DNA of 64,000 nucleotides from an uncultured Methanosarcinales archaeon (GCA_964384425.1 CAYLKE010000004.1:6511-70510); one strand, 5' to 3'; positions 29,887 to 64,000 are shown, counted from the stretch's first letter. Numbers and translations: made by a program. The notes: generated from the sequence alone by a model not told the origin.

Positions 29887-31773
29887 ATGATGGAAAAAAG
29901 AGGTCAGGTGACAATATTTATTATAGTAGGTATAATATTATTGGTTTCTATTGGATTAGTTTTTGTTTTCAGAAGTGAGCTTATTTCTGAAACTAAAATA
30001 TCTTATCCTGCAGAAGTTGAACCTGTTGCATTTGCAGTAAGAGATTGTTTACAACAAAAAGCAGATGAAGGTTTAGCATTACTTGGAAGTCAGGCAGGAT
30101 ATATTTATATTCCTCCTCAAATATTAGATGATAGTAATCTTAATGCTGATATTGGTATAAAAATACCTTACTGGAAAAAAGGAGATATAGTAAACATACC
30201 TTCTCTTGATAAAATGAGTTTTGATCTTAACAAATATATTGAAGTTAATCTAAAAGATTGTATGGGTAATTTTTCTGATTTTAGAGATTATGAAGTTATT
30301 GAAACTTCTCCTTTATCTGTAAATACCTCAATAGGTGATGAGGCAGTTGTATTTTCAATGAATTATCCTCTCAAAATAAGATTATTTTCTGATGGATCTG
30401 AGTATGATATTTCTCAATTTGAATATATTTCAAATATTAAATTAAAAAAACTTTGGTTATTATCTAAAGAAATCATGGAAAAAGAAATTGCAACAAAAAA
30501 ATTAGGAGATACAACATTTGATCTTATGGCAATGGATACAAAAATACCTGTTAATGGATATGATTTTAGTTGTGATAAAAAAGAATGGAAAATATCTGAT
30601 GTAGAAGACAGATTAAGAAAATTATTAGCATTTAACTTACCTTTATTAAGAATAAAGAAAACCCCAATAGAACAATTTCCTGATGAATATGAATATATGA
30701 ATACTCACTATATATGGGATGCAACAGATTTTGAATATGATGATGTGTCTGTTAGTTTTGGAATGATGGAAACTGAACCTTTAATGATGCATGTTTCGCC
30801 TTCAAAAGGAGAATACATAAAAAGTGGTGTTATAGAATCTCCTGATAAAAATAAATTAAGTCAATTAGGTATAGATACATCTGCTTTGCTTTCATTGGTT
30901 TGTTTTCAATTATGGAAATTTAATTATGATGTTTCCTATACTGCTTTTGCAAATGTTTTAGATGAATCAACAGGTTTTAAATTTACATTTCTATTTGATG
31001 TAAATGTAGAAGATAATGCTCCAGTTGATACTAGCAATGTACAAGTTGATTATGAAACTTATGTTGAAAAAACAAGTAATGAAGATTTTTGTGATGATAA
31101 AGTTAATGACTTAACAATATATACAAATGAATTTACTAATAATGATAATTATGGTGGAAGTCTTAATAATGTTGAATTGACATTTGATTGCATGCAATAC
31201 TCTTGTGATTTAGGTGACTCAATACCTATTGAAGGAGCATCTGGACTTAAAGTAAAACTACCTAGATGTACTTATGGTTATGTAAGAGCTAATAAAGAAG
31301 GATTTTTAGATGATGAAGAAGTTATTGAAATAGGACAAGAAAAAGTAGATATTAATCTTGTTCCTATACATAAATTAAATAATTTTGTAGTAAAAAAATA
31401 TATTTGGAATGAAAATATAAATGATTGGTTTATAGACGATATAACTGGATCAGATTATGCACTTGTATCTTTAAGAGGTAGTTTAAATAAAGGTGGAGAA
31501 AGTGTTGATTTAGGATCAAGTACAACTTATCCTTTTGAAGAAAGTGTACAAAATTATCTTGAAATATTTTCAGGATCTGATGTAAATTATATTGTTGATG
31601 TTAATTTATTAAGGTCTGGTAAAGTTATAGGAACATATAGTGGAAATTGGAATGTTTCTTGGCAAGATATTTTATTAGGAGAAGAGGTTATTATTCCAGT
31701 TATATTTAATTCAGATAGTCAAGAAATTTTAAATCTTAATAAATCACTAATACCTGAGATAGAGATAAGATGA
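29887..31773 (+). CDS. Large (628 aa) archaeal type IV pilin-like protein with class III signal peptide
   Basis: N-terminus MMEKRGQVTIFIIVGIILLVSIGLVFVF has a KRG|Q prepilin-peptidase-type cleavage motif followed by a ~22-aa hydrophobic helix. 4-nt ATGA overlap with the next gene. Confidence 0.6.
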   Translation: MMEKRGQVTIFIIVGIILLVSIGLVFVFRSELISETKISYPAEVEPVAFAVRDCLQQKADEGLALLGSQAGYIYIPPQILDDSNLNADIGIKIPYWKKGDIVNIPSLDKMSFDLNKYIEVNLKDCMGNFSDFRDYEVIETSPLSVNTSIGDEAVVFSMNYPLKIRLFSDGSEYDISQFEYISNIKLKKLWLLSKEIMEKEIATKKLGDTTFDLMAMDTKIPVNGYDFSCDKKEWKISDVEDRLRKLLAFNLPLLRIKKTPIEQFPDEYEYMNTHYIWDATDFEYDDVSVSFGMMETEPLMMHVSPSKGEYIKSGVIESPDKNKLSQLGIDTSALLSLVCFQLWKFNYDVSYTAFANVLDESTGFKFTFLFDVNVEDNAPVDTSNVQVDYETYVEKTSNEDFCDDKVNDLTIYTNEFTNNDNYGGSLNNVELTFDCMQYSCDLGDSIPIEGASGLKVKLPRCTYGYVRANKEGFLDDEEVIEIGQEKVDINLVPIHKLNNFVVKKYIWNENINDWFIDDITGSDYALVSLRGSLNKGGESVDLGSSTTYPFEESVQNYLEIFSGSDVNYIVDVNLLRSGKVIGTYSGNWNVSWQDILLGEEVIIPVIFNSDSQEILNLNKSLIPEIEIR

Positions 31774-34700
31774 ATATAAAAAAAGGATTTATGATTGTAG
31801 TTTTGTTTATTTTGTCAGTCACATTTGTGTCTGGGCTTGTTACAGAAAATATAGATGTAACTTCTATAACTGATAAAAGTGCAGTTGTTTCAATTCAAGC
31901 AGATGAAACTTCAACAGCAATTGTAAGATATTGGCCAGAAGGAGGGAGTGTAAAGCAAGTAAGATCCTCATCTTCTAATAAAAAACATGAAATTACTTTA
32001 GGTGGTTTAGCAACAAATACTAAGTATTATTATAATCTAACTTTATATGGGGAAGGAGATAATATTTTTAATAACAATAATGTAGGACAACAATTTACAT
32101 TTACAACTGCTTCTGAAGATAATTTTGCACCATTTATTGATATAAATCTTCCTGATTCTTATGATAGAAAGCAAATAAGTATTCTTGGGAAAACAGAACA
32201 GAATTCACACATTACTCTTAGAGTAAATAATGAAGTTATTGGAGAAATGGATGATGATGTTGGAGAGTTTTATTTTCATCATGTTGTTTTAAATGAAAAT
32301 TCACAAAATGATATTTATATTGAAATAGAGGATAATAGGGGCAATAAAGAAACATATTCAAAAACAATATTTGTTGATACCATACCTCCAAATCTTAATG
32401 TTACAACATCTCCTGAAGGAGATTTAATAAATAAAAGTCAAATCACAATAATAGGAAATGTTTCTGAATCTTCACAAATAATTGTTACAATAAATGGTGA
32501 AGAAAAAATAAATACTTCTGGAAGATCATTTGAATCTTCTGTTCAATTGATTGATGGAAGAAATTATATTTCAGTAAAAGCTGTTGATAATGCTGGATGG
32601 AGTACAAAATATGAAAGAACAATAATTGCTGATTTTAAAGATCCTGAAATAACTGAGATAAGACCTAAATTAGATGATATGTTTTTTTATGAAGGAAGTG
32701 GATATAGGTCAGTAAGTGGAAAAACAGAACCTAATTCAAAAGTTTATATTTATGTTGATCCAATTTTAACACCTAGACCTTCTGATGCAACAATTGTAGG
32801 AGATTATTCATATCATACAACTACAGATGAGAATGGAAATTTTAATTTTGATATTGTTGATTTACAACATGGAAAAGACATAGGTAGAAGATTTACTATT
32901 CAAGAGACAGATGATGATCTCAGTATAACTAGAAATAAAAAAATTGATGTTTATGTAACTGTTGAAGACAAGGTAGGACATAAAACAACAAAAAAATATA
33001 CTCTTTCTGTTGGGAATTGCAATGAAGGTTCTTTTGTATTTGCAGTTAATAATCTAGTTGATTATCAATCTCCTAAATATTTTAGTTTAGAAAGAATGAA
33101 GCAAGGAACAGAAGTATTTTCATTTGTACTTGATTTAGAATATAATGGTGCTGCACAAAATAATAAACTCAAACCTTCAGTTGAGGAAATAAAAGATAAT
33201 TATTATCAAATAAGATCTGTAAGTTTAGATTCTGCTTGTAAGGCAGGAGCATATGGAGAAAGTAATAGTTATACTTGGGCATGTGAGGTTCTTCCTTCTC
33301 GTCCAAAAATAGCAATGCCATTGAATGCAGAAAAAACAAGATGGTTTTTTAGTTATGACCTTAAAAAATTAAGTTATGAAGATTTTGATAAGTTATCTCT
33401 TATTGATATGAATATTACTAAAAATGATACTTCTGTTGTTTCAGATAAAGCAGTTGAAAGATTTGAGGAATTAAAAAAGAATGCTTTATCTGTTTTTAAT
33501 AAAGATACAAATGGGGAACTTAAGTTTCCATTTAAAGTAAAAATATCTTATCAAGAAAAAATATTTTCTAAAAAACTTGAGACAAAATCTCAGACAAGTT
33601 GTACAGAAGTTGCAAACTATATGGATGTTGTAAGAACAGAAGATTTCCCAAGTTTAATTCCAGATAATATTATTGATGATGCTTCAAAAGAGATAAATAA
33701 TAGTATAAAAGAAATCGAATATTTCCAGACAAATTATCTTATGAAAGCAATAGAATATGTTAATTATGCTTGTATTGGAAGTACTGTTTCATTATTTGCA
33801 TTTAAGATATATAGGAATTTTCAAGAACTTAGTGCAATAACTGCTTGTATTGCTGGAGAATCTCAAGGAAAAACTTGTTCTCTTGGAAAAAATCCAGTAA
33901 CTGCAATAGATAAACTAAACAAATGTTATTATACTGGGTCTGAAGATCCTATAAAAAAATCAAAACAAGATTATGTGTTGGGGACATGTAAAACTGTACA
34001 AAATCCTACTGGAGAAAGAAAATCACTTACTTCACTTACCTTAACAAATCCTGAATTTTCAATTGTTCAAAGTGCATGGAATTATGAAGAAAGATTATGG
34101 TATATTATGAGATGGGCTTGTGATAGGACATTATGTAGGGTGACACCTGCAAGATGGACAGAAGATAGAACAATAGAAGATATAAGGAGTATAAAATCAA
34201 ATGAACAAAAATGTGCTGTTGATTTAGGAAATGTAAGGTCTTTAAGAAAAATAGATAGTTGTGGTGATAATTACAAAGATTTATTACAAAAAAGTTTTCA
34301 AAAACAAGAAAATTGTTATAAATTAGATAATTGTCTTTACAAATTAGATCCAGGAAATAACAAACTAATACTTATTTCTAAAGAAACAAAAGATAAAAAC
34401 AATGTAACTGATTGTGAAAAAAATCTTAAATACAATAAAGTTGGAGATAGTGTTTATACTTCTTTACAAGAAACATGTAATCAAATTTGTGGAAGAGCTG
34501 AAGGATGGGAAGGAAAATGCATGAAGAAAGATTTTGAAAAAGATTCTGCTTATAAAAAAGATACAGCATATTATTCAGGAGGATGGACAAGAGATTGTGC
34601 AACTAAAGATAATCAAATATGTGTATGTTATAGAAATGATACAAAAATAGTTTCAAAAGAAATAAAAGATGTTCAGAAAAGAGGTGCTGCTTATGCTGGT

Positions 34701-37070
34701 ATTGGAAAAGATGAATATTATTCGGGAAGTAGTGGTGCAGATAAATCTACTTTAGGTAGTGGTTGGAAATTTAATTACAGAGAAAATAGATTATATTTAG
34801 AAAATAATGGAAAATCTGGAATCTATTATCCTAAGGAAAGATTTTATTCTGGTAGAGATGAGCCAGGTGCATTAGGAATGTCTCATTTATTTGATATGTT
34901 TAGAGACGAGAAAAAAATATCCGAATTAAATCCTTATGTTGATTATATATCTCCATTTTTCCCACAACTTTGTTTAACTGGAATGAATGCAAGAATAAAT
35001 TTACTTAAGAATCATCTTAAAATGTTTCAAAAATGTATGGAACAAACAAAAACAACAGGAGATGCAAATTCAGCTACATGTAAGAAAATATTTAGTCAAG
35101 GATTATGTAATTTATTATCTACTTTATTTTTATCACAAGAAAAAGGATGTTTTGGAAAACCTATGTCTGCTTCACAAGGAAAAGATGGAGGAGCTCCTTC
35201 AACATTAGCTCTTTTAAGAACTGCTATAGGAAGTGCAACAAAAGATATGGAAAATAGTCTTAAAGCAGATTATGGAGAAGAAATGGGACTTGCATCCTAT
35301 CTTGAAGGAGGAAGTGTAAGTATTGCAAAAAACATTTGTCTTTTTGCATTAGGAATAGATATAAATCTTGATTTAGAAGCTATGGCAACTGTAACAATGG
35401 GATCTGAAGTTCCTTCAAGAACATCTGTATTAGTATTAACTAAATCAGGACAAGCAGGTGAAAGACAGATGCTTTCATTTAATCCAGCAAATGGAAATGC
35501 AATATATGCTTATGATGCTGCATGGACAATATCTTCTGGATGTGATTTAGATTACAACATATATCTATCTGCTGTTACAGACAAAGAAGTTAGAGAAAAT
35601 AATTTAGATTGTACAATAGTCAATGCAGCAATTGAAGGAAGTAATGGATGCGATAACTTTAATGGAAATACTGAAGTAACTTCTTTATTTTATTCTCAAT
35701 CAGGACTAGAAAATGGTCAATGGGTTGATAAATCAAAATCAGTTAATATAAATTCAAATAGAAGATATGATCATATAAAGATTGTGTTTAGACCAAAAAC
35801 TAATGTAGATATTTCAAAATGCTTTCCAAAAGAATATATTAAGGGAAATCAAGCTGTTATGTATTTCCCAATAAAAGAACAGTTTTCACTTGCAGATCAA
35901 TATGGATGTAGTGTGCAAAGTAATGGTGAATTTAAATGCACTGCTTTTGGAATAAGTGGCCAGAAACAAGCATGGATTCAGGATGTAAAATGTTTTAATC
36001 AAAGAACTTATGAATATGAAGATTGTAGTAGGGTTGAGATGCATTTGGGTGATCCTGTAAAATTAGCAGCAGAGGTTTATACTGATGGAAACAAATATTG
36101 TTTAGGTGGACAACTTACTGGAGATGAACAAAAGATATTGCCTGTTATAGGAGCAGGAAGACCTGAAACATTTGATGTTAAGATAACTCTTGATGATAAT
36201 ATTACCTTGCAAGATTTTATGTCTAATCTTAAGAATAGTGTGTGGGTAAGTAGTAAGGTTAATGTAAGTGCTGTGGGTATTGAATTTGTAAGTGCTGCAA
36301 GTGAAACAAAGAGTGGGGAAGTGAAGATAGGGTATCAGAAAAGTGGTTCACAATATAAGTTTACATTGCCTAAAAATAGTGGAATAAATTCAAAACCTTT
36401 TAATGATGGAGAATATTCTCTAACAGAAATTTCTCGTTATACAATAGATTATAATGGATATAAATTTAAGATAAAAGAATTCATTCCTTCAAAAGATAAA
36501 GGGTATTTTGTTATAAGAACTTCTGCAATAAGAGCAAGTGAGGGTTTTGGAAGAGATGCTTCTTTAAGTTTATATTATCCAAAGGAAGGGACAAGTACTT
36601 GTGTAAAAGGTCAGATGATATCTGTCACACTTCCAGAAGGAATGGCTTATCCAACTTCAAGAACAGTAAATCTTAAATTTAAGCAAACAGATGAAGTTAT
36701 TGAAGGAGCTCAGAAATATTATGACGCTGGAAAGAAAGCATTTAGAAAATGGGCAAGTAATTATACAGATAGTAAAACAGCTGAGTTTGCTATAAGTAAT
36801 TTTAAGATAGCTGCTACAAAAGAACCTCAAGGATTTTATGATCTTAATTCACAATTTGCAATAATTACAACTTATGGTTTATTGAGTGAGAAAGCAATTA
36901 ATGATAAAGAAAAATATAAGAAAAATATGTGTGATAATTATTTTGCAACAAAACAAAAATTTGATGCTGGTTATTATTCAAAATATCCAAAAAGAGATCA
37001 ATATGAATATACTTATGATTATGATAGAATAAAAGCATATTTTGATAAATATGGGGAGATATGCAAATAA
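31770..37070 (+). CDS. Giant secreted protein (1766 aa) with Ig/FN3-like beta repeats and a Cys-rich C-terminal half; possible class III-like N-terminus (KKG|F…)
   Basis: N-terminal MNIKKGFMIVVLFILSVTFVSGLV. Repeated ~90-aa beta-rich modules. About 60 Cys in the C-terminal 1200 aa. Confidence 0.75.
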   Translation: MNIKKGFMIVVLFILSVTFVSGLVTENIDVTSITDKSAVVSIQADETSTAIVRYWPEGGSVKQVRSSSSNKKHEITLGGLATNTKYYYNLTLYGEGDNIFNNNNVGQQFTFTTASEDNFAPFIDINLPDSYDRKQISILGKTEQNSHITLRVNNEVIGEMDDDVGEFYFHHVVLNENSQNDIYIEIEDNRGNKETYSKTIFVDTIPPNLNVTTSPEGDLINKSQITIIGNVSESSQIIVTINGEEKINTSGRSFESSVQLIDGRNYISVKAVDNAGWSTKYERTIIADFKDPEITEIRPKLDDMFFYEGSGYRSVSGKTEPNSKVYIYVDPILTPRPSDATIVGDYSYHTTTDENGNFNFDIVDLQHGKDIGRRFTIQETDDDLSITRNKKIDVYVTVEDKVGHKTTKKYTLSVGNCNEGSFVFAVNNLVDYQSPKYFSLERMKQGTEVFSFVLDLEYNGAAQNNKLKPSVEEIKDNYYQIRSVSLDSACKAGAYGESNSYTWACEVLPSRPKIAMPLNAEKTRWFFSYDLKKLSYEDFDKLSLIDMNITKNDTSVVSDKAVERFEELKKNALSVFNKDTNGELKFPFKVKISYQEKIFSKKLETKSQTSCTEVANYMDVVRTEDFPSLIPDNIIDDASKEINNSIKEIEYFQTNYLMKAIEYVNYACIGSTVSLFAFKIYRNFQELSAITACIAGESQGKTCSLGKNPVTAIDKLNKCYYTGSEDPIKKSKQDYVLGTCKTVQNPTGERKSLTSLTLTNPEFSIVQSAWNYEERLWYIMRWACDRTLCRVTPARWTEDRTIEDIRSIKSNEQKCAVDLGNVRSLRKIDSCGDNYKDLLQKSFQKQENCYKLDNCLYKLDPGNNKLILISKETKDKNNVTDCEKNLKYNKVGDSVYTSLQETCNQICGRAEGWEGKCMKKDFEKDSAYKKDTAYYSGGWTRDCATKDNQICVCYRNDTKIVSKEIKDVQKRGAAYAGIGKDEYYSGSSGADKSTLGSGWKFNYRENRLYLENNGKSGIYYPKERFYSGRDEPGALGMSHLFDMFRDEKKISELNPYVDYISPFFPQLCLTGMNARINLLKNHLKMFQKCMEQTKTTGDANSATCKKIFSQGLCNLLSTLFLSQEKGCFGKPMSASQGKDGGAPSTLALLRTAIGSATKDMENSLKADYGEEMGLASYLEGGSVSIAKNICLFALGIDINLDLEAMATVTMGSEVPSRTSVLVLTKSGQAGERQMLSFNPANGNAIYAYDAAWTISSGCDLDYNIYLSAVTDKEVRENNLDCTIVNAAIEGSNGCDNFNGNTEVTSLFYSQSGLENGQWVDKSKSVNINSNRRYDHIKIVFRPKTNVDISKCFPKEYIKGNQAVMYFPIKEQFSLADQYGCSVQSNGEFKCTAFGISGQKQAWIQDVKCFNQRTYEYEDCSRVEMHLGDPVKLAAEVYTDGNKYCLGGQLTGDEQKILPVIGAGRPETFDVKITLDDNITLQDFMSNLKNSVWVSSKVNVSAVGIEFVSAASETKSGEVKIGYQKSGSQYKFTLPKNSGINSKPFNDGEYSLTEISRYTIDYNGYKFKIKEFIPSKDKGYFVIRTSAIRASEGFGRDASLSLYYPKEGTSTCVKGQMISVTLPEGMAYPTSRTVNLKFKQTDEVIEGAQKYYDAGKKAFRKWASNYTDSKTAEFAISNFKIAATKEPQGFYDLNSQFAIITTYGLLSEKAINDKEKYKKNMCDNYFATKQKFDAGYYSKYPKRDQYEYTYDYDRIKAYFDKYGEICK

Positions 37071-37128
37071 AAGATTGAAGGTGAAAATTGCAAACAATTT
37101 TCAGTCATCAATTAGGAGAGTGATAAAT

Positions 37129-51493: not shown

Positions 51494-51498
51494 TCAAT

Positions 51499-51921
51499 AT
51501 GGATGAAATATCATGGAAAGAATGTATAGAAAATGGAATTATTTTTGAAACTATACCTGATTTAGAAAGATCATTACAATTATTGTCTATGGCTGAGACA
51601 AGATTTCTTTTTTGGAATAAAAAAGTTAATAAAAAATTTATTACATTGAAAGTTGAAGGATACTACGAAATCATTAAAGAACTTATTTTTGCTTTAATAT
51701 ATAAAAATGGTTTTAATTGTAAAAATCATATTTGTTTAATTGCATATTTACAAGAAAAACATTCTGAATTAATTTATGAAATTGATAAGATCAATGAATT
51801 GAGAAAAATAAGAAATGATATATCTTATCGTGGATTTTATGTTGATAAAGATTATTTAGATAGAAATGAATTAGAGTTTAAGAATATTATAAATATCTTA
51901 ATAAATAAAGTTAAACAATAA
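51499..51921 (+). CDS. HEPN-domain protein, partner of MNT (second pair)
   Basis: Starts 6 nt after the MNT stop. Helical, with an R-x-R-N-x3-Y motif (LRKIRNDISYRG). Confidence 0.5.
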   Translation: MDEISWKECIENGIIFETIPDLERSLQLLSMAETRFLFWNKKVNKKFITLKVEGYYEIIKELIFALIYKNGFNCKNHICLIAYLQEKHSELIYEIDKINELRKIRNDISYRGFYVDKDYLDRNELEFKNIINILINKVKQ

Positions 51922-52038
51922 TTTTTTAACATCAAAATTAAAATATCAAAATAAAATTGTCTCGTTTGGCACAAAACCTTCCCAAAATAGACAGGATATT
52001 GAGAAATATTTATAAACAAAGCTTTCTTTTTTAAAATA

Positions 52039-53387: not shown

Positions 53388-54695
53388 TTAGTAATAATTT
53401 TCATCATCATCTTCTAGGTCATCATCGTCTTTCTTTCTCATTTTTGTTAATCCGACGATAACTAATAGTAATACTAAGATGATAACTAAAACTATTAAAC
53501 TAACTTCTAATATTTTAACTGTGTCTGTTCCAGCAAAAGTTGAACTTTCTTCTGTTCCATCTGTTCCTATTACAAATGCATTGAAGTTTACGTCCTTTAA
53601 TGCTTTTGTGTTTGATAAAACAGTAACTGCTATTTCTTGAAGTCCTTCTGTTTCTTTTTTAGCTGCAAGATATAAGTTAATTTTTTTAGATTCTTGAGGT
53701 TCTAGAACAACAATATTGTTGCTTAGTTGAGCATCTGCCCACTCAATTTCTTCTGTTTTTAACATATATGTTTTAACTGAATCTGCTTTATTGGTTAAAA
53801 GCATTGAAAATTCAGCAGTTTCTCCAGCTTTAACTTCTTGAAAATTATCAGCAACTGAAATTACTAGTGCTTTATCAGATTGACTTATTATTTCATTAGC
53901 TTCTGAAGCTATAACTTCTGCTTCTGTTACTAATGTTTCTTCGTATGTTTCTATTTTTTCTGATTTTTTAAATACTAATTTAGGTTGTAAATTTATTCTT
54001 TTAAATTCTTCTTTTCCTAATTTAATACCTAATACACCTTCTTCTCCTTCTTCAAATTCTTCTGGTACATTAACTACAAATGTTTTTGTGTAAATTGTAT
54101 CTTTATCAACATTGAATTTATTTGTTCTTAATGATTCACTTTCAAATTCTGAACCTGAAAATTTATATTCAATAAAGATATTTTCAACATCTTCTTTTGC
54201 TTCGAATGTTAGTTTAACTTTTAGATCTTCGCCGATTATGATATCATCAACTTTGTATCTGTCTGCATCATTATCTCTAATTCTGAAATCTGCATCTCCA
54301 ATATCTAGTTTCATAACATCAACCCAGTCAACTCTTGATGTATCTCTACATAATGCGTATGCTGTTCCTCTGATTTCAGCTTTATTCCATGTTCCGCCTG
54401 TTCTTCTTACGTTCCATTTAACTGAATTTACTTTATCTTCTTTTTCAAAGTCATCCATATGGATTCCTGTTGATTCTTCTTTATCATTTTCCATCCATGC
54501 ATCAACTGCATAATAATTTGGTGGACATGATACTTTAATGTCTATGCTTTCATCTGGCCATCTGATTATTTTATGGTATGTATCTGACATTACAACATCT
54601 CCATCTTGGTATTCTGGTGATGTGTATGTTTGAGCTGCTGCAAATGGAGCAACCAAAGCCAGTACAAGCATTAATGCTGTAAATAATTTTTTCAT
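53388..54695 (-). CDS. Secreted protein with Sec signal peptide, beta-rich ectodomain, C-terminal TM anchor and poly-acidic tail
   Basis: Signal peptide MKKLFTALMLVLALVAPFAAAQ|T. C-terminus …LIVLVIILVLLLVIVGLTKMRKKDDDDLEDDDENYY. Confidence 0.65.
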   Translation of the reverse strand: MKKLFTALMLVLALVAPFAAAQTYTSPEYQDGDVVMSDTYHKIIRWPDESIDIKVSCPPNYYAVDAWMENDKEESTGIHMDDFEKEDKVNSVKWNVRRTGGTWNKAEIRGTAYALCRDTSRVDWVDVMKLDIGDADFRIRDNDADRYKVDDIIIGEDLKVKLTFEAKEDVENIFIEYKFSGSEFESESLRTNKFNVDKDTIYTKTFVVNVPEEFEEGEEGVLGIKLGKEEFKRINLQPKLVFKKSEKIETYEETLVTEAEVIASEANEIISQSDKALVISVADNFQEVKAGETAEFSMLLTNKADSVKTYMLKTEEIEWADAQLSNNIVVLEPQESKKINLYLAAKKETEGLQEIAVTVLSNTKALKDVNFNAFVIGTDGTEESSTFAGTDTVKILEVSLIVLVIILVLLLVIVGLTKMRKKDDDDLEDDDENYY

Positions 54696-54726
54696 TTTAC
54701 CCCTCCTATTGAGTTATTATGATTTT

Positions 54727-55581
54727 TTATTGTTTTTTGAATATAAATTCAGATTTGCTATACTCTTCTTTAAAATCCTTTAAGTCATCTAATAAATTGC
54801 TGTATTTTTTCTCTATTTTCCCAATAGCTTCATTTCTGTTTTGCATATATTGTTGTGTTTTCTTTACTAATTTCTTATATTGGTTCATATTACTCTTTTT
54901 AAGTGCTTTTTTTCTATCGTCATTTATTTTACTAAGATTATTAGTGTATAAATCATTCACTTTTTTAATCTCTTTTTTCTTTATACCATCATAAGAATCA
55001 ATTATCAATTCAATTATCTGAGAACTGTATACATTATTCAGACTTTTTTTGAATTTATCATTAAAGCCATCTATTTTTTCACCATTGACATATAATGCAT
55101 CCATTGCCTTCATATGCTTTAATGTATTTTCTTTATAACCAGGATTTATTATACTCAAGTTAAATCCTTCTTCATCTATATTTGTTTTTCCCAATACTTT
55201 TCTATTATCAATATAACCAGTAATTGTAACTTTATCATTTAATTTAACTGAATAAGTATCAACAATAGAAGTATTTAGTATTTTATTTATATTTTTTTTA
55301 ACTAATTCATTACATCCTTTAAATTCATTAATTATTTGATCTTTAGAATAAATATCTTTTATTTTGAAATCTTCCTTTGCTATATTTTCATCATGTATAA
55401 TTTTTTCTAAAGGTGTATCTTTCTTCATATCTGATTTTTTTTCTTTAATAAACTCATTTCTTAGTTTAATATAATCTTCTTTAGGTACAATATTTTCGTT
55501 TGAAGTGATACATCCTTGACTCATTCCAAATGCTACAGGTAATACCCCATACTTTCCGATTTTTAATAATAAATCTGCCAT
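54727..55581 (-). CDS. Putative lipoprotein (lipobox-like …FGMSQGC) with K/E-rich domain
   Basis: N-terminal hydrophobic segment ending in a Cys. Confidence 0.55.
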   Translation of the reverse strand: MADLLLKIGKYGVLPVAFGMSQGCITSNENIVPKEDYIKLRNEFIKEKKSDMKKDTPLEKIIHDENIAKEDFKIKDIYSKDQIINEFKGCNELVKKNINKILNTSIVDTYSVKLNDKVTITGYIDNRKVLGKTNIDEEGFNLSIINPGYKENTLKHMKAMDALYVNGEKIDGFNDKFKKSLNNVYSSQIIELIIDSYDGIKKKEIKKVNDLYTNNLSKINDDRKKALKKSNMNQYKKLVKKTQQYMQNRNEAIGKIEKKYSNLLDDLKDFKEEYSKSEFIFKKQ

Positions 55582-55685
55582 TTTATTCCTCCTCTAATGT
55601 AACTTTATAGTGATAACCTTATTTATACAACTTTTATTTATAAACTTTTTGGTTCTGTAGTTACTATAGAGTAGTTTTACCATTT

Positions 55686-58283
55686 TTATCTTTGTTTTAA
55701 TATGATTTCATATTTTTTTGTTAAATTGAGCTTATTTTCTTTTTCTCCATCATCATTCAATCTCATATATGGGAGAATATCATTTGAATAGATTTTTTTG
55801 TTATTTTTTATCTTGTTTTTTAAATCATTATTTATTTCTTTATTTACTATAACATATCTATTATTCAACCAATCTGTCTTTTTTCCCTTGAATGTAACCT
55901 TATATATTAATATATCATTTATCTTATCATCTATTCCTTTTGCTCTACCCAATATATCCTTATATTGCTCAAATACTTGCTGTGAGTTAGTTATTTTAGA
56001 TGAATACAACTTATTGATTGCAAATTGCTTTAATTCATCTGGAAGTTCTTGATTCGAGTATTTTGTTTTCAAATCAAGATATTCAGAAGTTAAGTTATCG
56101 ATTTTTTCATTTAATTTACTATATTCATTAATTGTTCTTTTATTTACTTTATTTAATCCACTAAATATTGTTTTTTTGATTTCTTGAATATCTTCTCTAA
56201 CTTCTGCTTTTTTAACATAACTACTTAGTGATTTATTGAATGCACTAACTAATTTTCTTATATTAGAACCAAATTTTTGTATTTTCATGTAGTCATTCAA
56301 TGATGTTGTTATATCTTTTACTTGTTCTTTGATACTTTTGTCATTTTTGTACAGTTTAGACATCTTTCTACTTATGGACCCCATAACTCTCCCGAACTCT
56401 TTTTTACTTAAAACATCATCATTTTTGTTATTATTTATGTAATCTATTACTTTATTGTAAAGCTTTTGATGTTTTTCTTTTAATTCTTTTTTATCTAAAT
56501 TAATCTGCTCTTCAATACCTGTAATTTTTTCTGATAGTGAAACATATCCTGCTTTGATATTTTCTAGTTTTTCTTCTAATTTATCATTATCTTCTAATTT
56601 ATCATCAACAACATTCCCAACTTCTTGTTTGAATTTTCCTTTTATGTTTGATAATAATTTGTTAATTTTATTAGAAATATAGGATTTTGATTGTTTTATC
56701 TTATTGCTTACAAAACCTTCTTCTGCCACATAACCTTGTTCAGCAGCTGCTCCTGCCCCACCTAATGCCAATGCTCCAATTACTAGTGAAGCCAATACTG
56801 TTTTTCTTACAGGATGTGTGTTTGTAGCTTTTTTCACTGCTTTTCTTTTTTTCTCGTCTTCAACTTTCTCATAAATTGCATTCTCTATTTTTTCTTTAAA
56901 ATATTCAAGTTCCTTTCCTTTTCCTTTATCAAATCCAGAGATTATTTTAGATAATCTAGGAATCTCTTTTTTAAGAACTCTTTTTAATTTTTTGGCTTTG
57001 TAATTAGCAATATCATCTGCAAGTTCTTTATCAAGTTTACCTTTAACAGCTTCACTTTCAAAATCACTTAGTTTTTTATCAAAAACTTTATTTTCTAGAT
57101 CTTTCTTATTTTTATTAAGATATGCCCTCAATTTACTCTTTTGAAGGGAATTTTTAGCACTGTCAGCAATAAGATATTGAATAATTGTTTTTTCTTTGTT
57201 ATTTAATTTAATTTTATTATCTTTTGAATATTTTTGAATTATATTATTATAAGCTGAAGCAACAGAATTGTCTATATTATAATTCTCTCCATCCATTACC
57301 ATATCTGTATTAATCTTATTGAATTTATTTTTAATATAATTAATAATTCCACTTTCTAAATTTTTATTAGTTATACCTGTAGTTTTTTTTGTAGTTTCTG
57401 GTTTTTTTCTTTTAATTCTTATTTCTGTTTTCTTATTGATATCATCGTCTTTTTCTTCACTAAAATTTTCTTCAACATTAAATTCAGAATAAGGTTTATT
57501 ATTATCTTCAGAAATCATTTTTTCAATACCTTTTTCAACATCTATATCTTTCTTTGAAACTTTTTTGTTTTGTTTATTATCATCTGTCTTTTGAATTTTA
57601 TATTCGTCAGGTTCTTGATTTTCTAAAGGTTTATCATCATTTTCTATCTTAGGACTTCTATTAACATTTTCAACAGATTTCTTAACCTCAGAATTATCTT
57701 TTACTTTTTCTAATTTATTGTATGGTTGAGTTACTAATTCTTTTTCATCATTTTCCTCAACATTTGATTTATCATCTTGTTTGGTATTATATTCTTGTTT
57801 TTTATCTAGAGGTTCTTCATTAACTTTCCCTAATTTATTATTTAAAATATTACTTACTTCATTATTGATACCACTATAATTACTTGGATTAGGATTTTCT
57901 TGTTCTGAAATGTATTGATTATTTATTTTTATAAATTGATCAAGATTTTTAGCTATGTCTCTCGCATAATTATCATTAATATTTACAAATTCTTCTTTTA
58001 AAATTTCAAGATAATCATTAATTTGATATATTTTTTCACTGTCTAAATTATCTACTTTTATATTTGATTGGTAATCTTTGAATATTTTAGATGACTCTGC
58101 TAATTTTTTAATTTCTTCTGAGAATATTTGGTGTGTTTGAGGATCAATTGATTTTTCTAATTCAAATTCATTAGGGTTTATTCTTTTAATATATCCTAAT
58201 GTTGCTATTTCAGAATTAACTTTTTTTTTAGCACTTCCTAAACTTTTTTCATTAATAATATCTTCGAGGTCTTTTTTGTCCAT
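55686..58283 (-). CDS. Large (865 aa) bitopic membrane protein: ~490-aa Lys/Asn/Glu-rich low-complexity N-terminal region, single Gly/Ala-rich TM, ~350-aa coiled-coil C-terminal region
   Basis: Central hydrophobic segment VLASLVIGALALGGAGAAA. Strongly charged flanking regions. Confidence 0.65.
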   Translation of the reverse strand: MDKKDLEDIINEKSLGSAKKKVNSEIATLGYIKRINPNEFELEKSIDPQTHQIFSEEIKKLAESSKIFKDYQSNIKVDNLDSEKIYQINDYLEILKEEFVNINDNYARDIAKNLDQFIKINNQYISEQENPNPSNYSGINNEVSNILNNKLGKVNEEPLDKKQEYNTKQDDKSNVEENDEKELVTQPYNKLEKVKDNSEVKKSVENVNRSPKIENDDKPLENQEPDEYKIQKTDDNKQNKKVSKKDIDVEKGIEKMISEDNNKPYSEFNVEENFSEEKDDDINKKTEIRIKRKKPETTKKTTGITNKNLESGIINYIKNKFNKINTDMVMDGENYNIDNSVASAYNNIIQKYSKDNKIKLNNKEKTIIQYLIADSAKNSLQKSKLRAYLNKNKKDLENKVFDKKLSDFESEAVKGKLDKELADDIANYKAKKLKRVLKKEIPRLSKIISGFDKGKGKELEYFKEKIENAIYEKVEDEKKRKAVKKATNTHPVRKTVLASLVIGALALGGAGAAAEQGYVAEEGFVSNKIKQSKSYISNKINKLLSNIKGKFKQEVGNVVDDKLEDNDKLEEKLENIKAGYVSLSEKITGIEEQINLDKKELKEKHQKLYNKVIDYINNNKNDDVLSKKEFGRVMGSISRKMSKLYKNDKSIKEQVKDITTSLNDYMKIQKFGSNIRKLVSAFNKSLSSYVKKAEVREDIQEIKKTIFSGLNKVNKRTINEYSKLNEKIDNLTSEYLDLKTKYSNQELPDELKQFAINKLYSSKITNSQQVFEQYKDILGRAKGIDDKINDILIYKVTFKGKKTDWLNNRYVIVNKEINNDLKNKIKNNKKIYSNDILPYMRLNDDGEKENKLNLTKKYEIILKQR

Positions 58284-58442
58284 TCTTTCTCCATAAAATA
58301 TAATAATTAAGTTAAACAGACTACCAACCTCTCCTATTTGTATTTACTATTTCAAAGTGGTTTATAAGTTTTTCTATTTTTTTACATAATTGATTAGGTA
58401 TAAATAATATATTATAGAATTTAATAATAAAAATAAAATTAG

Positions 58443-58976
58443 TTATCTTAAAAGATTTAATATTTCTTTAAAATCATCTTTTTTAGTTAAATCAATATTA
58501 TCAATACTCTTAGCTTCCTGTGTCATTAATTTCATTGATTGAATAATCTTTTTAATATCATCTAATGAAAAATCTTTTTCACCAATATAAGGACCTAATT
58601 TTTTTAGATCATTTTTAGAAAGATTATCCATATATTTTATCAATTTATTGAATCTTGATTCAATCCTTCCAGCTATTTTTATTATCTTGTTCTTGTCTTT
58701 TGTATTTTTTAAAAGTTCAAAGTCATTTTTATTTTCTTTTTTTATTTTTATTATTTCACTTAAAATATTTTTTTCTGTGTCTGTTATATTTTCTTTATCA
58801 ATCTTTTGAACTATTTTATTATTCAATTTATCAAATTCATTATTCACTTTTTCAACTTGTTTAGCAACAACTGGTTTAAGTTCATTATATTTGTCTTTTA
58901 TTTGTTGCTTTATACATCCTGTTGCTAGTGTAAATCCAATAAGTGCCATTCCGATAAGTCTTTTTATTTTATCCAT
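58443..58976 (-). CDS. Small lipoprotein with coiled-coil domain
   Basis: N-terminal LIGMALIGFTLATGC lipobox-like signal. Lies 10 nt downstream of the FlaJ-like gene. Confidence 0.55.
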   Translation of the reverse strand: MDKIKRLIGMALIGFTLATGCIKQQIKDKYNELKPVVAKQVEKVNNEFDKLNNKIVQKIDKENITDTEKNILSEIIKIKKENKNDFELLKNTKDKNKIIKIAGRIESRFNKLIKYMDNLSKNDLKKLGPYIGEKDFSLDDIKKIIQSMKLMTQEAKSIDNIDLTKKDDFKEILNLLR

Positions 58977-58986
58977 TTTCTCTCCC

Positions 58987-61170
58987 TTATGTCATAGTTC
59001 CTACCATTACATATCCTGCAATAGAATTAAATAATATCATAACAACCAGAGCTATTGCACAATACATAAGTGTACTATTTGTTAAATTTTTTCCAAGTTG
59101 ATATCTTTCCATTGTATCATCTTCTCCAAATTCAATACCATTACTTATGATTGTTAATATGAATATTAACTCAACAACATATATTCCAATAATTATTTGA
59201 AAATAATATATTGGAAGACCTGTTCCAAACATATCCACTATTCCTGTAAATTGAGATGCTTGTCCCTGAACTTGTCCACCACTAACTAATTTTGTAAGCT
59301 GTCCACTTAATCCTGCTAGTATTGTTGTAATCATTGATGTGATACCCACAACTATTCCTGATATTGCAGGTGTCATAAACTTTATCTGAGATTTCATTGA
59401 AGAAAGTGTTTCTCCTAATAAATCTCTTAATCTCTCATCAACTCTATGCATCTCTCTTATGTAACGAGACATTGAAAGTAATGCTTGTGCAGCTATCTTA
59501 GGACCTTTTTTAGAACTTTCAACAAGTATTTTCATTGAACTTTTAATTATCTCAGAAGGAAACATACTTAATGTTCCTGTTTCTTTATTAAATAGGGCTT
59601 CTTCTATACTCATGCCCATTTTTATCATGTTCTCTACAGTACGCTTAAAAAATTGTCCTGTTGTACTATCTCCTAATTCTGCTGCAACTTTCCTAAATGC
59701 AACTTCTACAGGTAGTCCATCTCCTAAACGATTACCTAATTGAAATAAAGCTGATGCAAATTCTTCTTCTAATTCTTTTGTTTTATCTCTTATTTTTATT
59801 ACATTTTTACTACTTAATTTATAATAAATACCTGCACTTATTCCTACTGCTAATGTTATGAATAAAGACATTATACCTGCTCCTAATCCAAATGGGCCTA
59901 TTTTTTCTGAAGCATCACATGCAATTTTTCCAGGAGGACAGATATAATTTAAGAACTTTGATGTTTCAGTTATTGCAATATCAAATGCAGGATCTAAAAA
60001 ATGAATAATCATTGGAAATAATCCTATTAATAGTAAACCCGCACCTATTAATATTGCAATATGTTTTGCCTTTATTGTTATTTCAGAAAATCCTAATTTT
60101 ATTGTAATACCTTTAATAATAGATTTTTTATTTTTTTCTTTTCCTCCTCCACTTGGACGTTTTTCAAGTATACGTCTTCCCATATAATAAACTCCTACAG
60201 GAAGAAGAATGTTGTATATTACAGCAATATAAAGAGCAATTCTTCCAGGAGAAAGTGATTCATCACTCATAAAACTTACAATTAAAGGCAACATGACTAA
60301 TCCTAAAATAGGAAGAATAACTCCTAACATATTTAACATAGTCATGGGAGTACCCATATTATGTGCATAATGAAGCATTTTTTCATATGTTTCAGAAAGA
60401 AGTACATCAAGAGATTTATCTAATAAATCAAGACGACGTGATTCAGATCCTTCATATAATGAACTTACAATAAGATGAAAAACTTCTATAAATTCTCTAT
60501 TAGTTTCTTTCCATCTTTCTAAATAATGATTAATTGATTCAGTTATATTTGAAAATTCTTGTGTTTCTACATCCCAAAGTATTTTTTTCATATCTAATGC
60601 AAGAGGAGGTTTAAGATGAATAGATGCAAACTCAATTGCTCTTTCAAGATTAGATGTATGTTTCATATATGTAACAATATAAAAAATACATAAAATCATT
60701 TGATTAGATGTACGCATTTTCCATTTAGTTGATAAAAAATCTGGAACTTTTTGAAGTATAAAAAATAAAACAGCTGCTACAATAAGAGATAGTAATAAAA
60801 GAAACATAGAGCCCAATAATCCAAAAGAAATAAATGCACCTAAAAAGAACACAATAATTGCTGTAATATAACTCAAAGATATTGCTCCTTGTGGAGTTAT
60901 ACCAAGATGAGCTTCTTCTATTCTTATATTTAAATTTTTTACTTGTTTATCAGTTATAGGAAATTTTATTTTTTCAGAATAATTACATGCTTTTTCATAA
61001 TAAGTTAATCTTTTAGACATAAATGATTTTTTGAAATTTTCATATTCAACAGTTATTGGACGTTTACTTTTTTCAAATTGTTCTATCTTTTTATCTGGAT
61101 TTGTACTTTTTTCTAACTCATTCTTTATTCTTTCCTTATACCTGCTGATTATTTTTTCTTCATCAGCCAT
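58987..61170 (-). CDS. FlaJ/TadC (GspF-like) polytopic membrane platform protein of a type IV pilus/archaellum-type system
   Basis: 727 aa with at least 9 hydrophobic helices and two soluble helical domains. 8-nt overlap with the upstream secretion ATPase gene, the gene order expected for FlaI-FlaJ. Confidence 0.55.
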   Translation of the reverse strand: MADEEKIISRYKERIKNELEKSTNPDKKIEQFEKSKRPITVEYENFKKSFMSKRLTYYEKACNYSEKIKFPITDKQVKNLNIRIEEAHLGITPQGAISLSYITAIIVFFLGAFISFGLLGSMFLLLLSLIVAAVLFFILQKVPDFLSTKWKMRTSNQMILCIFYIVTYMKHTSNLERAIEFASIHLKPPLALDMKKILWDVETQEFSNITESINHYLERWKETNREFIEVFHLIVSSLYEGSESRRLDLLDKSLDVLLSETYEKMLHYAHNMGTPMTMLNMLGVILPILGLVMLPLIVSFMSDESLSPGRIALYIAVIYNILLPVGVYYMGRRILEKRPSGGGKEKNKKSIIKGITIKLGFSEITIKAKHIAILIGAGLLLIGLFPMIIHFLDPAFDIAITETSKFLNYICPPGKIACDASEKIGPFGLGAGIMSLFITLAVGISAGIYYKLSSKNVIKIRDKTKELEEEFASALFQLGNRLGDGLPVEVAFRKVAAELGDSTTGQFFKRTVENMIKMGMSIEEALFNKETGTLSMFPSEIIKSSMKILVESSKKGPKIAAQALLSMSRYIREMHRVDERLRDLLGETLSSMKSQIKFMTPAISGIVVGITSMITTILAGLSGQLTKLVSGGQVQGQASQFTGIVDMFGTGLPIYYFQIIIGIYVVELIFILTIISNGIEFGEDDTMERYQLGKNLTNSTLMYCAIALVVMILFNSIAGYVMVGTMT

Positions 61171-64000
61171 ATTTCTTAGCCTCTTTTTTTATAAGTTCTT
61201 TATATTCAAAAAAAACTCTTTCATTATCTATAAATCCTTTATCTTTTTTAATTTTATCAATTGTTTTATGAAAATAATCATTGCATCTTAATACAAAATC
61301 TGCTTCAAGAAGATCAGGATTTTTTAATTTATCAGATAATTTAACTATTTCTTCTTTGCATTTTGCTCTCAATTGTATATTTTCCCATACTGCATTCCAG
61401 TTTCCTGCAAAATCAGATATATTCGATGCAATTAATTTAAGAACTTCTGAATCTCCTGATGATAGTTCGTCTGTAATTTCTAATTGGTCTGTAATAGAGT
61501 TGTATTTCATAAGATCAACAAAACCTTTCTCTCTCATAGGATCATCTGTCCATTTTTTTCTTACTTCTGTTATTTTAAGAACTCTTCTTTTTTTCTTAAG
61601 ACCTGCAGCACTCTTAACAGGATTAGATATTACAATTATATCTGTTGCTTTGAAAGAAGTTTTTGGAACACCAATATCATTAACAACTCTATCAAAAACA
61701 CCATAAGGTGAATCACCATGAATTGTTCCTGCAACTACATTTGCAGCTGCACCAACTCTCATTGCTTCATAAAGTGATTTCGCTTCACTGTTATGAAGAA
61801 GTATGCTTCCTGATCCGCCAATAAATCTTTGTGTTGATTTAACAGAAAGATCATAAACATATTCGGGCTTATGAAGATTTATTGTTTCTATTGATTTTAT
61901 TCTATCAATAAAAAAATCTCCGTGAGCAAAATCATATAATTCATCAGTACATTTTACTTCTTCTGTAAGTTTTTTTAGATAATTCTTTGAACAGCATTTT
62001 GTCTTTCTTAAATGTCTGTATTTTCTTGGAAGTACAACATTTTTTTCTAATTCTTTTGGGTTAAAGACAACAGAGTCATTTTTTGAATGTGAAAATGAAT
62101 TTGATATTATTTTTGGTTTTTTATGAGTAAATCCTATGTTTTCAAGAAAGTATTTTATATATTTTCTTAATTTTATCTCAGCAATATAATATTTCCTATT
62201 TTCTTTTTTATTGGGCATTCTTTCAATTAGTTTGCATACTATGCCTTGAGTTAATAGAGCATAATTCACATCTTCAACTAGTTTTTTAGAAGTTGAATAA
62301 TATCTTATTATATTACCGCACTTTTTTAGAGAAGAAATTGATCCATCTCCACTATACATTCCTTTTAGAAGAGCACATATTTTATTTTTATTTAATCCAT
62401 AAACAAATTCAGGTATTCTTTTATGCAGACTTGTTTTGCCACAACCAAAATACAATAAAAGATCTATTAATGGTTTTGACATTATAAATATCTGAACCGA
62501 AGAACCTAATCCTTTAATTTTTCTTTGTGATACTTGAAGACCTAATTCTTTCTGACAAATATATTTTATATCTTCAATAATCTTTGGTTTTGAATTTGTG
62601 ATTTGAATTTTATTATTGTCGATGTTACCTTCTGCGAGATAATATCCAATAAGTCTTAAAATATTTTCATTGATTGGAAATTTGGCAGGAATACTATTAG
62701 AAGTACCTCTTTTTATTCTTAAGTCCTCAAGATTGTATTTTATCTTTGCTCTTTTCATTAGTTTTAAAAATGATTTTATGGGGATTCTTGTTTTTTGTGT
62801 TGAAAGAAGATACCTATAAATATCTGGGATTTTGCATATTTTACTTGCTTTTTTCCAGTTAAGTATTTTTATTGCTTTCCTTATATATGGTTCTGCATTT
62901 TCAACACGATAATTTTCTTTGAATATTTCAAGAAGATTAATACTATCAAAATTTTTGAATCCACAAGGTATTTTTGAAGGTATTATTATTGGATCATCAG
63001 ACATTAATTGATTTGTATTTATAGCTGCTATTTTAAAATCTACATGAGTAAATACACTATGATCTGGTGTTACAATAACTGATCTTCCTGATTTAGTTGT
63101 AAGTTTTATTAATTTGCTGGATTTAGGGTGTTTTATAAATCCTGAAATTGGTTTCAATTCCATTTTATTTTCATTTGTCAATGTGGGAAGATAAACATTT
63201 TTTAGATCTTTTCCTTCTATGTTTTTAATTGCAGTTCTTCTAGTAATTCCTTTTTCAATTATCACAACTTCTTGATCTCCCCTTAAAGAGCTTCTAACTT
63301 CTCCTACAATTAATGCACTATCTCCTAAACGAAGAGTTGTTCTAATTCCTATTGTTGCAGAAACTTCACTACTTTCTTTTCCAGCAAGTGCTGATGCAAC
63401 TTTAAGTGGTTGTATGTTGTAACCTAATTTCATAAGGGAATCAGTTGGAAGTTCTAGAGTGTTATGTGCTAGGATATTATCTGAAATAAAATTTTCATTT
63501 TCTGGAACTGAAAAATCATAAACCCAATTTTGTTTATTTTTTAATTTTTTAATTGAAACAATTTCGTCCCAAAAAATATCTGAATTAGATATTTTTTTAA
63601 GATATTTACCTAACTCATTTTTTTTGTCTATCAGATAATCTGCAATCTTATCTAGTTTATTTATTCCAATTTTATTGTTTCTTGTAATGTAATCTTGACT
63701 ATTAAAGATTTTCTTAGGACAAATTGACTTTAATTTATTCAATATGGTTTTATCTAATTTAACACTATCTGAACTAGCATGAGTTGATTTTCTTTTTGAT
63801 AAAATATTTAATTTCTTATTTTTATACTCTTGTAAAAATCCAATATATTTTTTAAACTTATCAATACTTTCCTGAGAACTGATTCTTCCATCTTTAGTTC
63901 TGTCATTATCTTTTGATTTTCTTTTTCTTAGTCTATTTATCCTAAATATTATTCCCCAATTAAGTAAAAGTGTTTGAATATCTTCCAATAGATTCATTGA
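61163..64000 (-). CDS. FlaI/VirB11-family secretion ATPase (N-terminus beyond window) interrupted by two inteins
   Basis: The frame stays open to the window edge, so the M at 63997 is internal. Extein motifs: …RLGDSALIVGEVRS | SEAKSLYEAMRVGAAANVVAGTIHGDSPYGVFDRV (Walker B, then a His-box-like motif), plus a C-terminal domain. Confidence 0.7.
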   Translation of the reverse strand, partial: SMNLLEDIQTLLLNWGIIFRINRLRKRKSKDNDRTKDGRISSQESIDKFKKYIGFLQEYKNKKLNILSKRKSTHASSDSVKLDKTILNKLKSICPKKIFNSQDYITRNNKIGINKLDKIADYLIDKKNELGKYLKKISNSDIFWDEIVSIKKLKNKQNWVYDFSVPENENFISDNILAHNTLELPTDSLMKLGYNIQPLKVASALAGKESSEVSATIGIRTTLRLGDSALIVGEVRSSLRGDQEVVIIEKGITRRTAIKNIEGKDLKNVYLPTLTNENKMELKPISGFIKHPKSSKLIKLTTKSGRSVIVTPDHSVFTHVDFKIAAINTNQLMSDDPIIIPSKIPCGFKNFDSINLLEIFKENYRVENAEPYIRKAIKILNWKKASKICKIPDIYRYLLSTQKTRIPIKSFLKLMKRAKIKYNLEDLRIKRGTSNSIPAKFPINENILRLIGYYLAEGNIDNNKIQITNSKPKIIEDIKYICQKELGLQVSQRKIKGLGSSVQIFIMSKPLIDLLLYFGCGKTSLHKRIPEFVYGLNKNKICALLKGMYSGDGSISSLKKCGNIIRYYSTSKKLVEDVNYALLTQGIVCKLIERMPNKKENRKYYIAEIKLRKYIKYFLENIGFTHKKPKIISNSFSHSKNDSVVFNPKELEKNVVLPRKYRHLRKTKCCSKNYLKKLTEEVKCTDELYDFAHGDFFIDRIKSIETINLHKPEYVYDLSVKSTQRFIGGSGSILLHNSEAKSLYEAMRVGAAANVVAGTIHGDSPYGVFDRVVNDIGVPKTSFKATDIIVISNPVKSAAGLKKKRRVLKITEVRKKWTDDPMREKGFVDLMKYNSITDQLEITDELSSGDSEVLKLIASNISDFAGNWNAVWENIQLRAKCKEEIVKLSDKLKNPDLLEADFVLRCNDYFHKTIDKIKKDKGFIDNERVFFEYKELIKKEAKKYG
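61790..63289 (-). other. Intein 2 (500 aa) with LAGLIDADG homing-endonuclease domain, inserted after VGEVRS of the ATPase
   Basis: Block A SLRGDQEVVI; block B TPDHSVFT; LAGLIDADG motifs LIGYYLAEGNI and LLKGMYSGDGSI; C-terminal …VYDLSV…GSILLHN followed by +1 Ser. Confidence 0.7.
63461..64000 (-). other. C-terminal part of intein 1 (start lies beyond the window), ending …NWVYDFSVPENENFISDNILAHN with +1 Thr
   Basis: Intein blocks F/G (VYDFSV…ILAHN|T). The downstream extein resumes with TLEL…, as expected for an insertion right after the P-loop GKT. Confidence 0.5.

Follow-up and report, generated by a model that had tools for sequence, protein, structure and literature searches.

Archaeal type IV pilus operons encode an ATPase of the VirB11/FlaI family followed by a platform protein of the TadC/FlaJ type with two T2SSF domains (PMC4858521). 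Earlier work describes archaeal ATPase/TadC pairs that lie away from their pilins (Makarova, Koonin and Albers 2016, PMC4858521), for the subclade 4F ATPase of nanoarchaea no cognate pilins could be identified (PMC4858521), and the pilus components of DPANN archaea are often unrecognisable (PMC6393860). DPANN archaea have tiny genomes and lead host-attached lives, which makes the building of surface structures a central question for the group. We analysed a 64,000-nucleotide (nt) stretch of DNA, hereafter the window, deposited as an uncultured Methanosarcinales archaeon (GCA_964384425.1, CAYLKE010000004.1:6511-70510); its G+C content is low (about 22-34%), its proteins find their best matches in Nanoarchaeota and Woesearchaeota genomes, and it belongs to a DPANN archaeon. 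Six open reading frames (ORFs) on the minus strand occupy positions 53388..64000, encoding a secretion ATPase, a membrane platform and then predicted envelope proteins of 177, 865, 284 and 435 amino acids (aa), with the lengths and spacings that an earlier note on this DNA had given (Table 1). That note took the six genes for one non-canonical pilus, secretion or host-attachment apparatus, in which lipoproteins and the 865- and 435-aa proteins stand in for pilins. Our analyses do not support a single six-gene apparatus; the motor pair is real and conserved, and the functional unit is probably a two-gene type IV pilus-like motor lying beside lineage-specific envelope genes.

The pair belongs to the archaeal ATPase/TadC kind already described, as a divergent member, enlarged and without annotation. 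It has the gene order of archaeal type IV pilus operons and, as in the pattern reported in PMC4858521, is found without local pilin genes. It differs from those operons in the size of its ATPase (approximately 758 aa, with an N-terminal 230-270 aa or so ahead of the region in which it aligns with known secretion ATPases) and in its platform of 727 aa, which has about nine helices and a two-cysteine loop and is detected by Pfam in only two of 36 close members. The Tad and type II motors (CpaF with TadB/TadC; GspE with GspF/EpsF) resemble it in their ATPase core, to which CpaF aligns, and in the cytoplasmic domains of the platform, which in a structural model superpose on those of EpsF, OutF and PilC. 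Unlike those motors, the pair is archaeal, one two-domain platform of about nine helices replaces the three-helix GspF or TadB plus TadC, and neither a secretin nor an alignment subcomplex is present here.

The ATPase ORF ends at position 61163 and runs past the window end at 64000, and is hence incomplete. Two inteins split the gene, leaving an extein of only 265 residues within the window. The first intein is inserted at IED/T; its boundary is confirmed by alignment of the flanking extein with intein-free orthologues in two related loci (L003 and L004), and an insertion of about 500 aa occupies the identical site in two others (L029, 994-4764; L058, 3980-7765). The second, at GEVRS/S, was seen in the window only and matches Pfam Intein_splicing (E 5e-28) and LAGLIDADG_3 (E 9e-25). 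Related loci encode orthologues of 757/758 aa that lack inteins; to these the extein shows an overall identity of 64-75%, and it contains the Walker B sequence LIVGEVRS and the His-box AGTIHGD. The spliced window extein by itself matches T2SSE (E 7e-3) and CpaF weakly, because only 265 of its residues lie inside the window. A full-length orthologue matches Pfam T2SSE (PF00437) at E 3e-15 (56 bits, cut-off 24.9), the NCBIfam models for FlaI, TadA, TrbB and VirB11, all of them far under the equivalog cut-offs, and among PDB entries afGspE (2oap, E 3e-25), CpaF (E 4e-17) and FlaI (4ii7, E 7e-17). Since the orthologues match T2SSE, these NCBIfam models and the three PDB ATPases, the window protein is, on sequence comparison, a member of the archaeal FlaI/GspE/TadA superfamily of secretion ATPases, in keeping with the FlaI-like ATPase of the earlier note, and not demonstrably a FlaI.

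The gene that follows shares 8 nt with the ATPase gene and encodes a 727-aa protein with at least eight hydrophobic segments. More than 3300 homologues (clusters at 90% identity), 50-57% identical over their full length, are all named 'hypothetical' and carry no Pfam domain. A profile of the 36 close homologues mentioned above found no match in the PDB, and hhalign detected no internal repeat in the close homologues. An exhaustive profile search extended the family to 1260 clusters at 50% identity, and in a diverse set of 41 members, 23-47% identical to the window protein, T2SSF is matched in 24 (best E 3e-10). In the distant members P0263, P0228 and P0246 this match spans the whole Pfam profile and maps to residues 162-295 of the window protein, its N-terminal repeat; P0263 and P0246 exceed the T2SSF threshold, the latter with two stretches. 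The C-terminal repeat (457-587) is covered by a weak T2SSF match of the window protein itself and by profile alignment to EpsF. An AlphaFold2 (AF2) model of the protein (predicted local distance difference test, pLDDT, 76; predicted template modelling score, pTM, 0.67) was compared with known structures by Foldseek, which matched it to the cytoplasmic domains of EpsF, OutF and PilC with probability 1.00, a target TM-score of 0.68-0.75 and a root-mean-square deviation of about 3 Å, at weak E-values (0.3-1) and with output that is silent on which of the two domains matched; the top global match is the PilC model 3jc8. From the distant members and the fold comparison, the 727-aa protein is classed as a very divergent platform of the FlaJ/TadC/GspF type with two predicted T2SSF domains, a pair that is present at the level of the family and of which the window sequence alone falls short. 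The FlaJ-like membrane protein of the earlier note is upheld by these distant matches and by the GspF/PilC-like fold, and the paired T2SSF domains, whose absence that note had named as telling against its reading, were recovered when distant family members were used.

Within residues 354-428 of the platform, a conserved loop between transmembrane helices carries two nearly invariant cysteines (C411 and C418) and the invariant residues G425, P426 and G428, and ahead of this loop the model places a small beta-hairpin (354-367). To our knowledge, such a cysteine-bearing loop is not known from GspF or TadC proteins.

Conservation of the pair was assessed in 85 related loci from about 83 distinct contigs, 11 of which are too short for the presence of the ATPase to be judged. 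Wherever the ATPase was seen it lies upstream of the platform on the same strand (57/57 loci), directly adjacent to it in 40 and 0.3-10 kb away in the other 17. Conservation of the pair extends over Woesearchaeota, Nanoarchaeota and Aenigmarchaeota; the platform of the nearest relative is just 57% identical to that of the window, and the family is about 50% identical across Woesearchaeota. When 1217 ORFs were clustered all against all, the ATPase and the platform were the only window genes to join multi-locus clusters. In relatives several other families are conserved alongside it, namely two coiled-coil proteins, three tandem multi-transmembrane paralogues, one N-terminally anchored protein and one OB-fold protein, and most of these sit upstream of the ATPase, away from the platform, a region that here falls past the window end at position 64000. 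Three of them (c2, c3 and c4) are without an informative homologue (for example in L004:12543-15439, L006:3374-6820 and L011:2405-5277, and in about 25 other loci). One coiled-coil family of about 149 aa ends in ..WNPxxFVTQ, another family of about 216 aa combines an N-terminal QLRxQG..D.IVEQL motif with a coiled coil, and the multi-transmembrane family consists of three tandem paralogues of about 189 aa with the pattern G..D..LPFLLVFTIVFAIL.KTK. Searches of c2 and c3 against PDB and Pfam returned generic coiled-coil matches only. The c4 paralogues were considered as pilins and rejected, having several transmembrane segments and lacking, at the N-terminus, a [KR][GA] site with a hydrophobic stretch after it.

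On the other side of the pair no such constancy was found. The genes directly after the platform differ between relatives, and the tightly coupled ones, in about 16 loci, are unrelated singletons, several of them cytoplasmic-looking. Tight spacing after the platform gene is hence no evidence of shared function, because these downstream neighbours are unrelated in the compact genomes of the relatives. In 13 related loci, free-standing ORFs with a LAGLIDADG-type motif (..LAEFIGILxGDGY..), identified by that motif only, lie right after the platform (for example L022:2578-3096, L034:12408-13055 and L026:8649-9380), which suggests that this position is a recurrent landing site for homing endonucleases.

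Another reading would make the pair the motor of an archaellum, FlaI/FlaJ (ArlI/ArlJ), driving swimming, which we regard as very unlikely. The superfamilies are shared, FlaI is the best-scoring named model for the orthologous ATPase (NCBIfam NF058587, E 5e-38), and a survey places fla genes in most Woesearchaeota genomes (PMC11606122). At 131 bits, however, that match stays far below the curated cut-off of 550, so that the equivalog score is not reached, and the PDB matches to afGspE and CpaF equal or surpass that to FlaI. Neighbour families c2, c3 and c5 gave no match to FlaH, FlaF/G or FlaC/D/E in Pfam or NCBIfam, and none of these, nor FlaX or archaellins, was found nearby in the window or in the 85 relatives; no archaellin-like class III signal protein lies beside the pair in the Woesearchaeota loci, and the platform, at 727 aa, has no Pfam match at threshold. 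The earlier note was thus right that this is no standard archaellum, the FlaI equivalog score being missed and fla partners and archaellins being absent from 53388..64000, and right also that the region encodes no archaellin-like small pilins: a motif scan found no class III (pilin-type) signal protein there.

Pilin-like genes are found with the platform family elsewhere. In an Aenigmatarchaeota locus (L086:10124-18115, GCA_038999725.1), family member P0228, 26% identical to the window platform, is followed like the window platform by a co-oriented run of envelope-protein genes; this run is tight, bears class III pilin signals (MKG/IALE...) and also encodes a 1020-aa secreted protein, and no ATPase was called within 8 kb. 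Since this pilin-signal run follows the platform, the family is tied to substrates of the type IV pilus type. The window run differs in consisting of lipobox, bitopic and Sec-secreted proteins, and has no BLAST homology to that of L086. Inside the window, two overlapping genes on the other strand encode proteins of 628 and 1766 aa with class III signals (Table 1), and homologues of the 628-aa protein adjoin the ATPase/platform pair in L064 and L045; we infer that the two are candidate substrates of the motor. They are followed by a gene for a 253-aa membrane protein, the set spanning 29887-37803 on the plus strand.

Under the two-gene motor, the ATPase would have to splice out its two inteins before becoming active, and the platform, translationally coupled to it, would offer a docking site through its GspF-like domains. 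By analogy with the type IV pilus, Tad and archaellum machines, the spliced ATPase may form a hexamer beneath the platform and turn or push it by ATP hydrolysis, and the platform might then lift class III signal proteins from the membrane into a surface filament or into display at the surface. The substrates would be encoded elsewhere in the genome, with the 628- and 1766-aa proteins as the candidates.

The four genes that follow the platform have the features of envelope proteins. The N-terminus of the 177-aa protein begins rich in lysine and arginine and continues as LIGMALIGFTLATG directly before Cys21, which fits a lipobox; it and the N-terminus of the 284-aa protein were compared by hand with the lipobox pattern of PROSITE PS51257, and both are predicted from sequence to be lipobox proteins and putative lipoproteins. 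The 865-aa protein comprises 18% K, 11% N and 10% E, and its N-terminus is predicted by the positive-inside rule to be cytoplasmic; AF2 run without an alignment gave an unusable model (pLDDT 37.8) of helices with a disordered stretch at 150-305. The earlier description of the 177-aa protein and its 10-nt gap, of the single-transmembrane, K/N/E-rich 865-aa protein and of the secreted, C-terminally anchored 435-aa protein was confirmed by parsing; for the 284-aa lipoprotein, the MSQG/C lipobox pattern fits and the hydrophobic region is weak.

None of the four has a match in any of the 85 related loci (tblastn, E <= 1e-3). All are singleton clusters at 90% identity, none has a paralogue within the window, and Pfam, NCBIfam and PHROGs returned chance-level matches only and no family. 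The 865-aa protein has no homologue but itself among 5.8 billion proteins. For the 435-aa protein there are two matches only (E about 4e-9, with about 28% of its length covered), each to a protein with immunoglobulin (Ig)-like domains (FixG_C, CARDB, NEW3, NPCBM_assoc or DUF11); it has an Ig-like (CARDB/NEW3-type) region, looks like a surface-layer protein and is nearly an orphan. Two further candidates were rejected: the 177-aa protein as a pilin, since its N-terminus lacks a [KR][GA] site with a hydrophobic stretch behind it, and a viral or mobile origin of the orphan block, which finds no PHROG support and whose G+C content at third codon positions (GC3) agrees with the rest of the window.

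Orphan status, the low-complexity K/N/E composition and the very low AF2 confidence for the 865-aa protein might be taken to mean that the downstream ORFs, that one above all, are spurious or decaying and non-functional. We consider this exceedingly improbable. ORFs of 177-865 codons are extremely unlikely to arise by chance at about 24% G+C, each is preceded by a GGAGG-type site at the proper distance, their signal peptides, lipoboxes and transmembrane segments make a coherent set, and GC3 and strand skews are like those of neighbouring genes. A ribosome-binding site of this type stands before all six genes of the block, and all six are real genes, because ORFs of such length are improbable by chance in stop-rich DNA of about 24-25% G+C.

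Whether these genes belong with the motor is a separate matter. That all six form one apparatus we judge unlikely, and we have no evidence that places the four neighbours in the machine. Their co-orientation, the start of the 177-aa gene 10 nt past the platform, the predicted envelope location of all four products, the lack of pilin genes in the region and the L086 platform, which likewise precedes a co-oriented envelope-protein run with a large NPCBM_assoc secreted protein, would all suit a six-gene apparatus. Bitopic coiled-coil proteins are, moreover, components of related machines (FlaX, PilN/O, GspL/M). Against this, the four proteins are without homologues in the 85 loci (the 435-aa protein having two weak, domain-level matches globally) and without window paralogues, the relatives' genes after the platform are heterogeneous, and the L086 run consists of classical pilins and not lipoproteins. 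Intergenic spacing along the block, from the ATPase to the 435-aa gene, is -8, 10, 159, 104 and 31 nt, and both long gaps hold TATA-like boxes, weak evidence of promoters in DNA so rich in A+T. Long same-strand gene runs are also the rule across the window. A scan for bacterial-type promoters and terminators, which is unsuited to archaea, found sites no commoner than in shuffled sequence. A single operon is inferred from co-orientation, and the 159- and 104-nt gaps weaken it. Thus the six co-oriented minus-strand genes described in the earlier note are present as stated, whereas its operon is weakened by these gaps and its ATPase proved incomplete and split by inteins; its assignment of lipoproteins and charged proteins as accessory partners was not borne out, there being no homologues in the 85 loci and heterogeneous platform neighbours, and the downstream genes turned out to be unconserved in related genomes, an outcome that the note itself had named as refuting its six-gene reading. 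The four are best read as lineage-specific, fast-evolving envelope proteins, co-stranded by chance in a compact genome, the 177-aa gene being probably the only one of them co-transcribed with the pair.

Several observations weigh against a two-gene motor of this kind. The platform stands without an ATPase in the 2.5-10 kb upstream of it in 17 related loci, and the pairing is hence frequent and not obligatory. The 727-aa protein itself scores 16.2 bits against Pfam T2SSF (PF00482; cut-off 25.2), in a single stretch (residues 477-587), and an hhalign comparison of N-half and C-half profiles from the diverse platform members is weak (E 0.018). A prepilin peptidase (Peptidase_A24; PibD/FlaK) was not matched among the subset of window proteins scanned. 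Lying only 10 nt past the platform gene, the 177-aa gene could be functionally linked to the pair. Metagenome contigs yielded no relatives of the 177- and 284-aa proteins by a method that detects close relatives only and, with a nearest relative just 57% identical in the platform, true partners that diverge fast could evade BLAST; undetected homologues are for this reason no proof that a gene is functionally absent from the system.

It is conceivable, and in our estimation decidedly unlikely, that in this lineage the widely conserved DPANN motor pair works with recruited partners other than pilins, building with them an attachment or secretion structure of the lineage's own that lacks classical pilins, and equally so that, in the same scheme, those partners would be the co-transcribed lipobox protein, a bitopic scaffold (490 aa cytoplasmic, 345 aa external) and the anchored Ig-like protein, all evolving too fast to be recognised. 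The motor pair is very well conserved, yet labelled 'hypothetical protein' everywhere, and its platform is without a Pfam domain. That the platform can now be assigned to the T2SSF family provides a handle for locating pilus systems and their substrates in DPANN genomes, and its four neighbour genes illustrate how large a share of the DPANN envelope is encoded by lineage-specific orphans.

Table 1. Coordinates and characteristics of the features discussed, numbered from the first nucleotide of the window.
Feature	Coordinates	Strand	Characteristics
628- and 1766-aa proteins, two overlapping genes	29887..37070	plus	class III signals MMEKRG/QVTIFIIVG and MNIKKG/FMIVVLF (motif scan)
435-aa protein, predicted Sec-secreted and C-terminally anchored	53388..54695	minus	Sec-type signal 4-22; transmembrane segment 398-416
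284-aa K/N-rich protein, lipobox-like, orphan	54727..55581	minus	VLPVAFGMSQG/C, Cys24; hydrophobic core weak
865-aa K/N/E-rich bitopic protein, orphan	55686..58283	minus	one transmembrane segment, residues 496-514
177-aa K-rich lipobox protein, orphan	58443..58976	minus	10 nt past platform gene; LATG/C, Cys21
Platform, 727 aa	58987..61170	minus	about 9 transmembrane helices; two predicted T2SSF/GspF-like cytoplasmic domains (~162-295, ~457-587), from fold and family comparison
ATPase C-terminal extein, including stop codon	61163..61789	minus	64-68% identical to 757/758-aa orthologues
Intein 2, complete, 500 aa	61790..63289	minus	LAGLIDADG homing-endonuclease domain; starts Ser, ends ...LLHN; next extein residue Ser
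ATPase extein segment, 57 aa	63290..63460	minus	TLELP...LIVGEVRS, Walker B region; 73-75% identical to intein-free ATPases of L003/L004
Intein 1, C-terminal part	63461..64000	minus	runs off window end; ends ...ILAHN, next extein residue Thr (parsing)

Beyond the pair and its neighbours, the window holds two tandem paralogous lipobox proteins on the plus strand (49570-50184 and 50273-50896; 204 and 207 aa, 49% identical, AYSG/C and AYSS/C), which belong to no Pfam family and have no homologue in the 85 related loci. They are followed at 50972-53253, also on the plus strand, by a nucleotidyltransferase gene, a small ORF and an AAA_14/DUF4143 ATPase gene that converges on the 435-aa gene. The small ORF has no Pfam match, and its reading as a HEPN partner is a guess from sequence and unsupported. 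Accessory-type content thus borders the orphan block.

A recurrent pattern was also seen at the N-termini of surface proteins, in which a transmembrane helix is followed by [LIVF]TG[KNHR]x[VT] (SSLTGKTV and SKITGNFV are instances). It occurs in four of 46 window proteins (852-4457, 4670-5275, 5967-14750 and 43767-45203) and in relatives (L003:4709-6397 and 8147-10837; L004:2638-4281 and 6044-7699; and family c5, in 22 loci). On large surface proteins, this pattern might serve as a signal for processing or sorting that is specific to the lineage.

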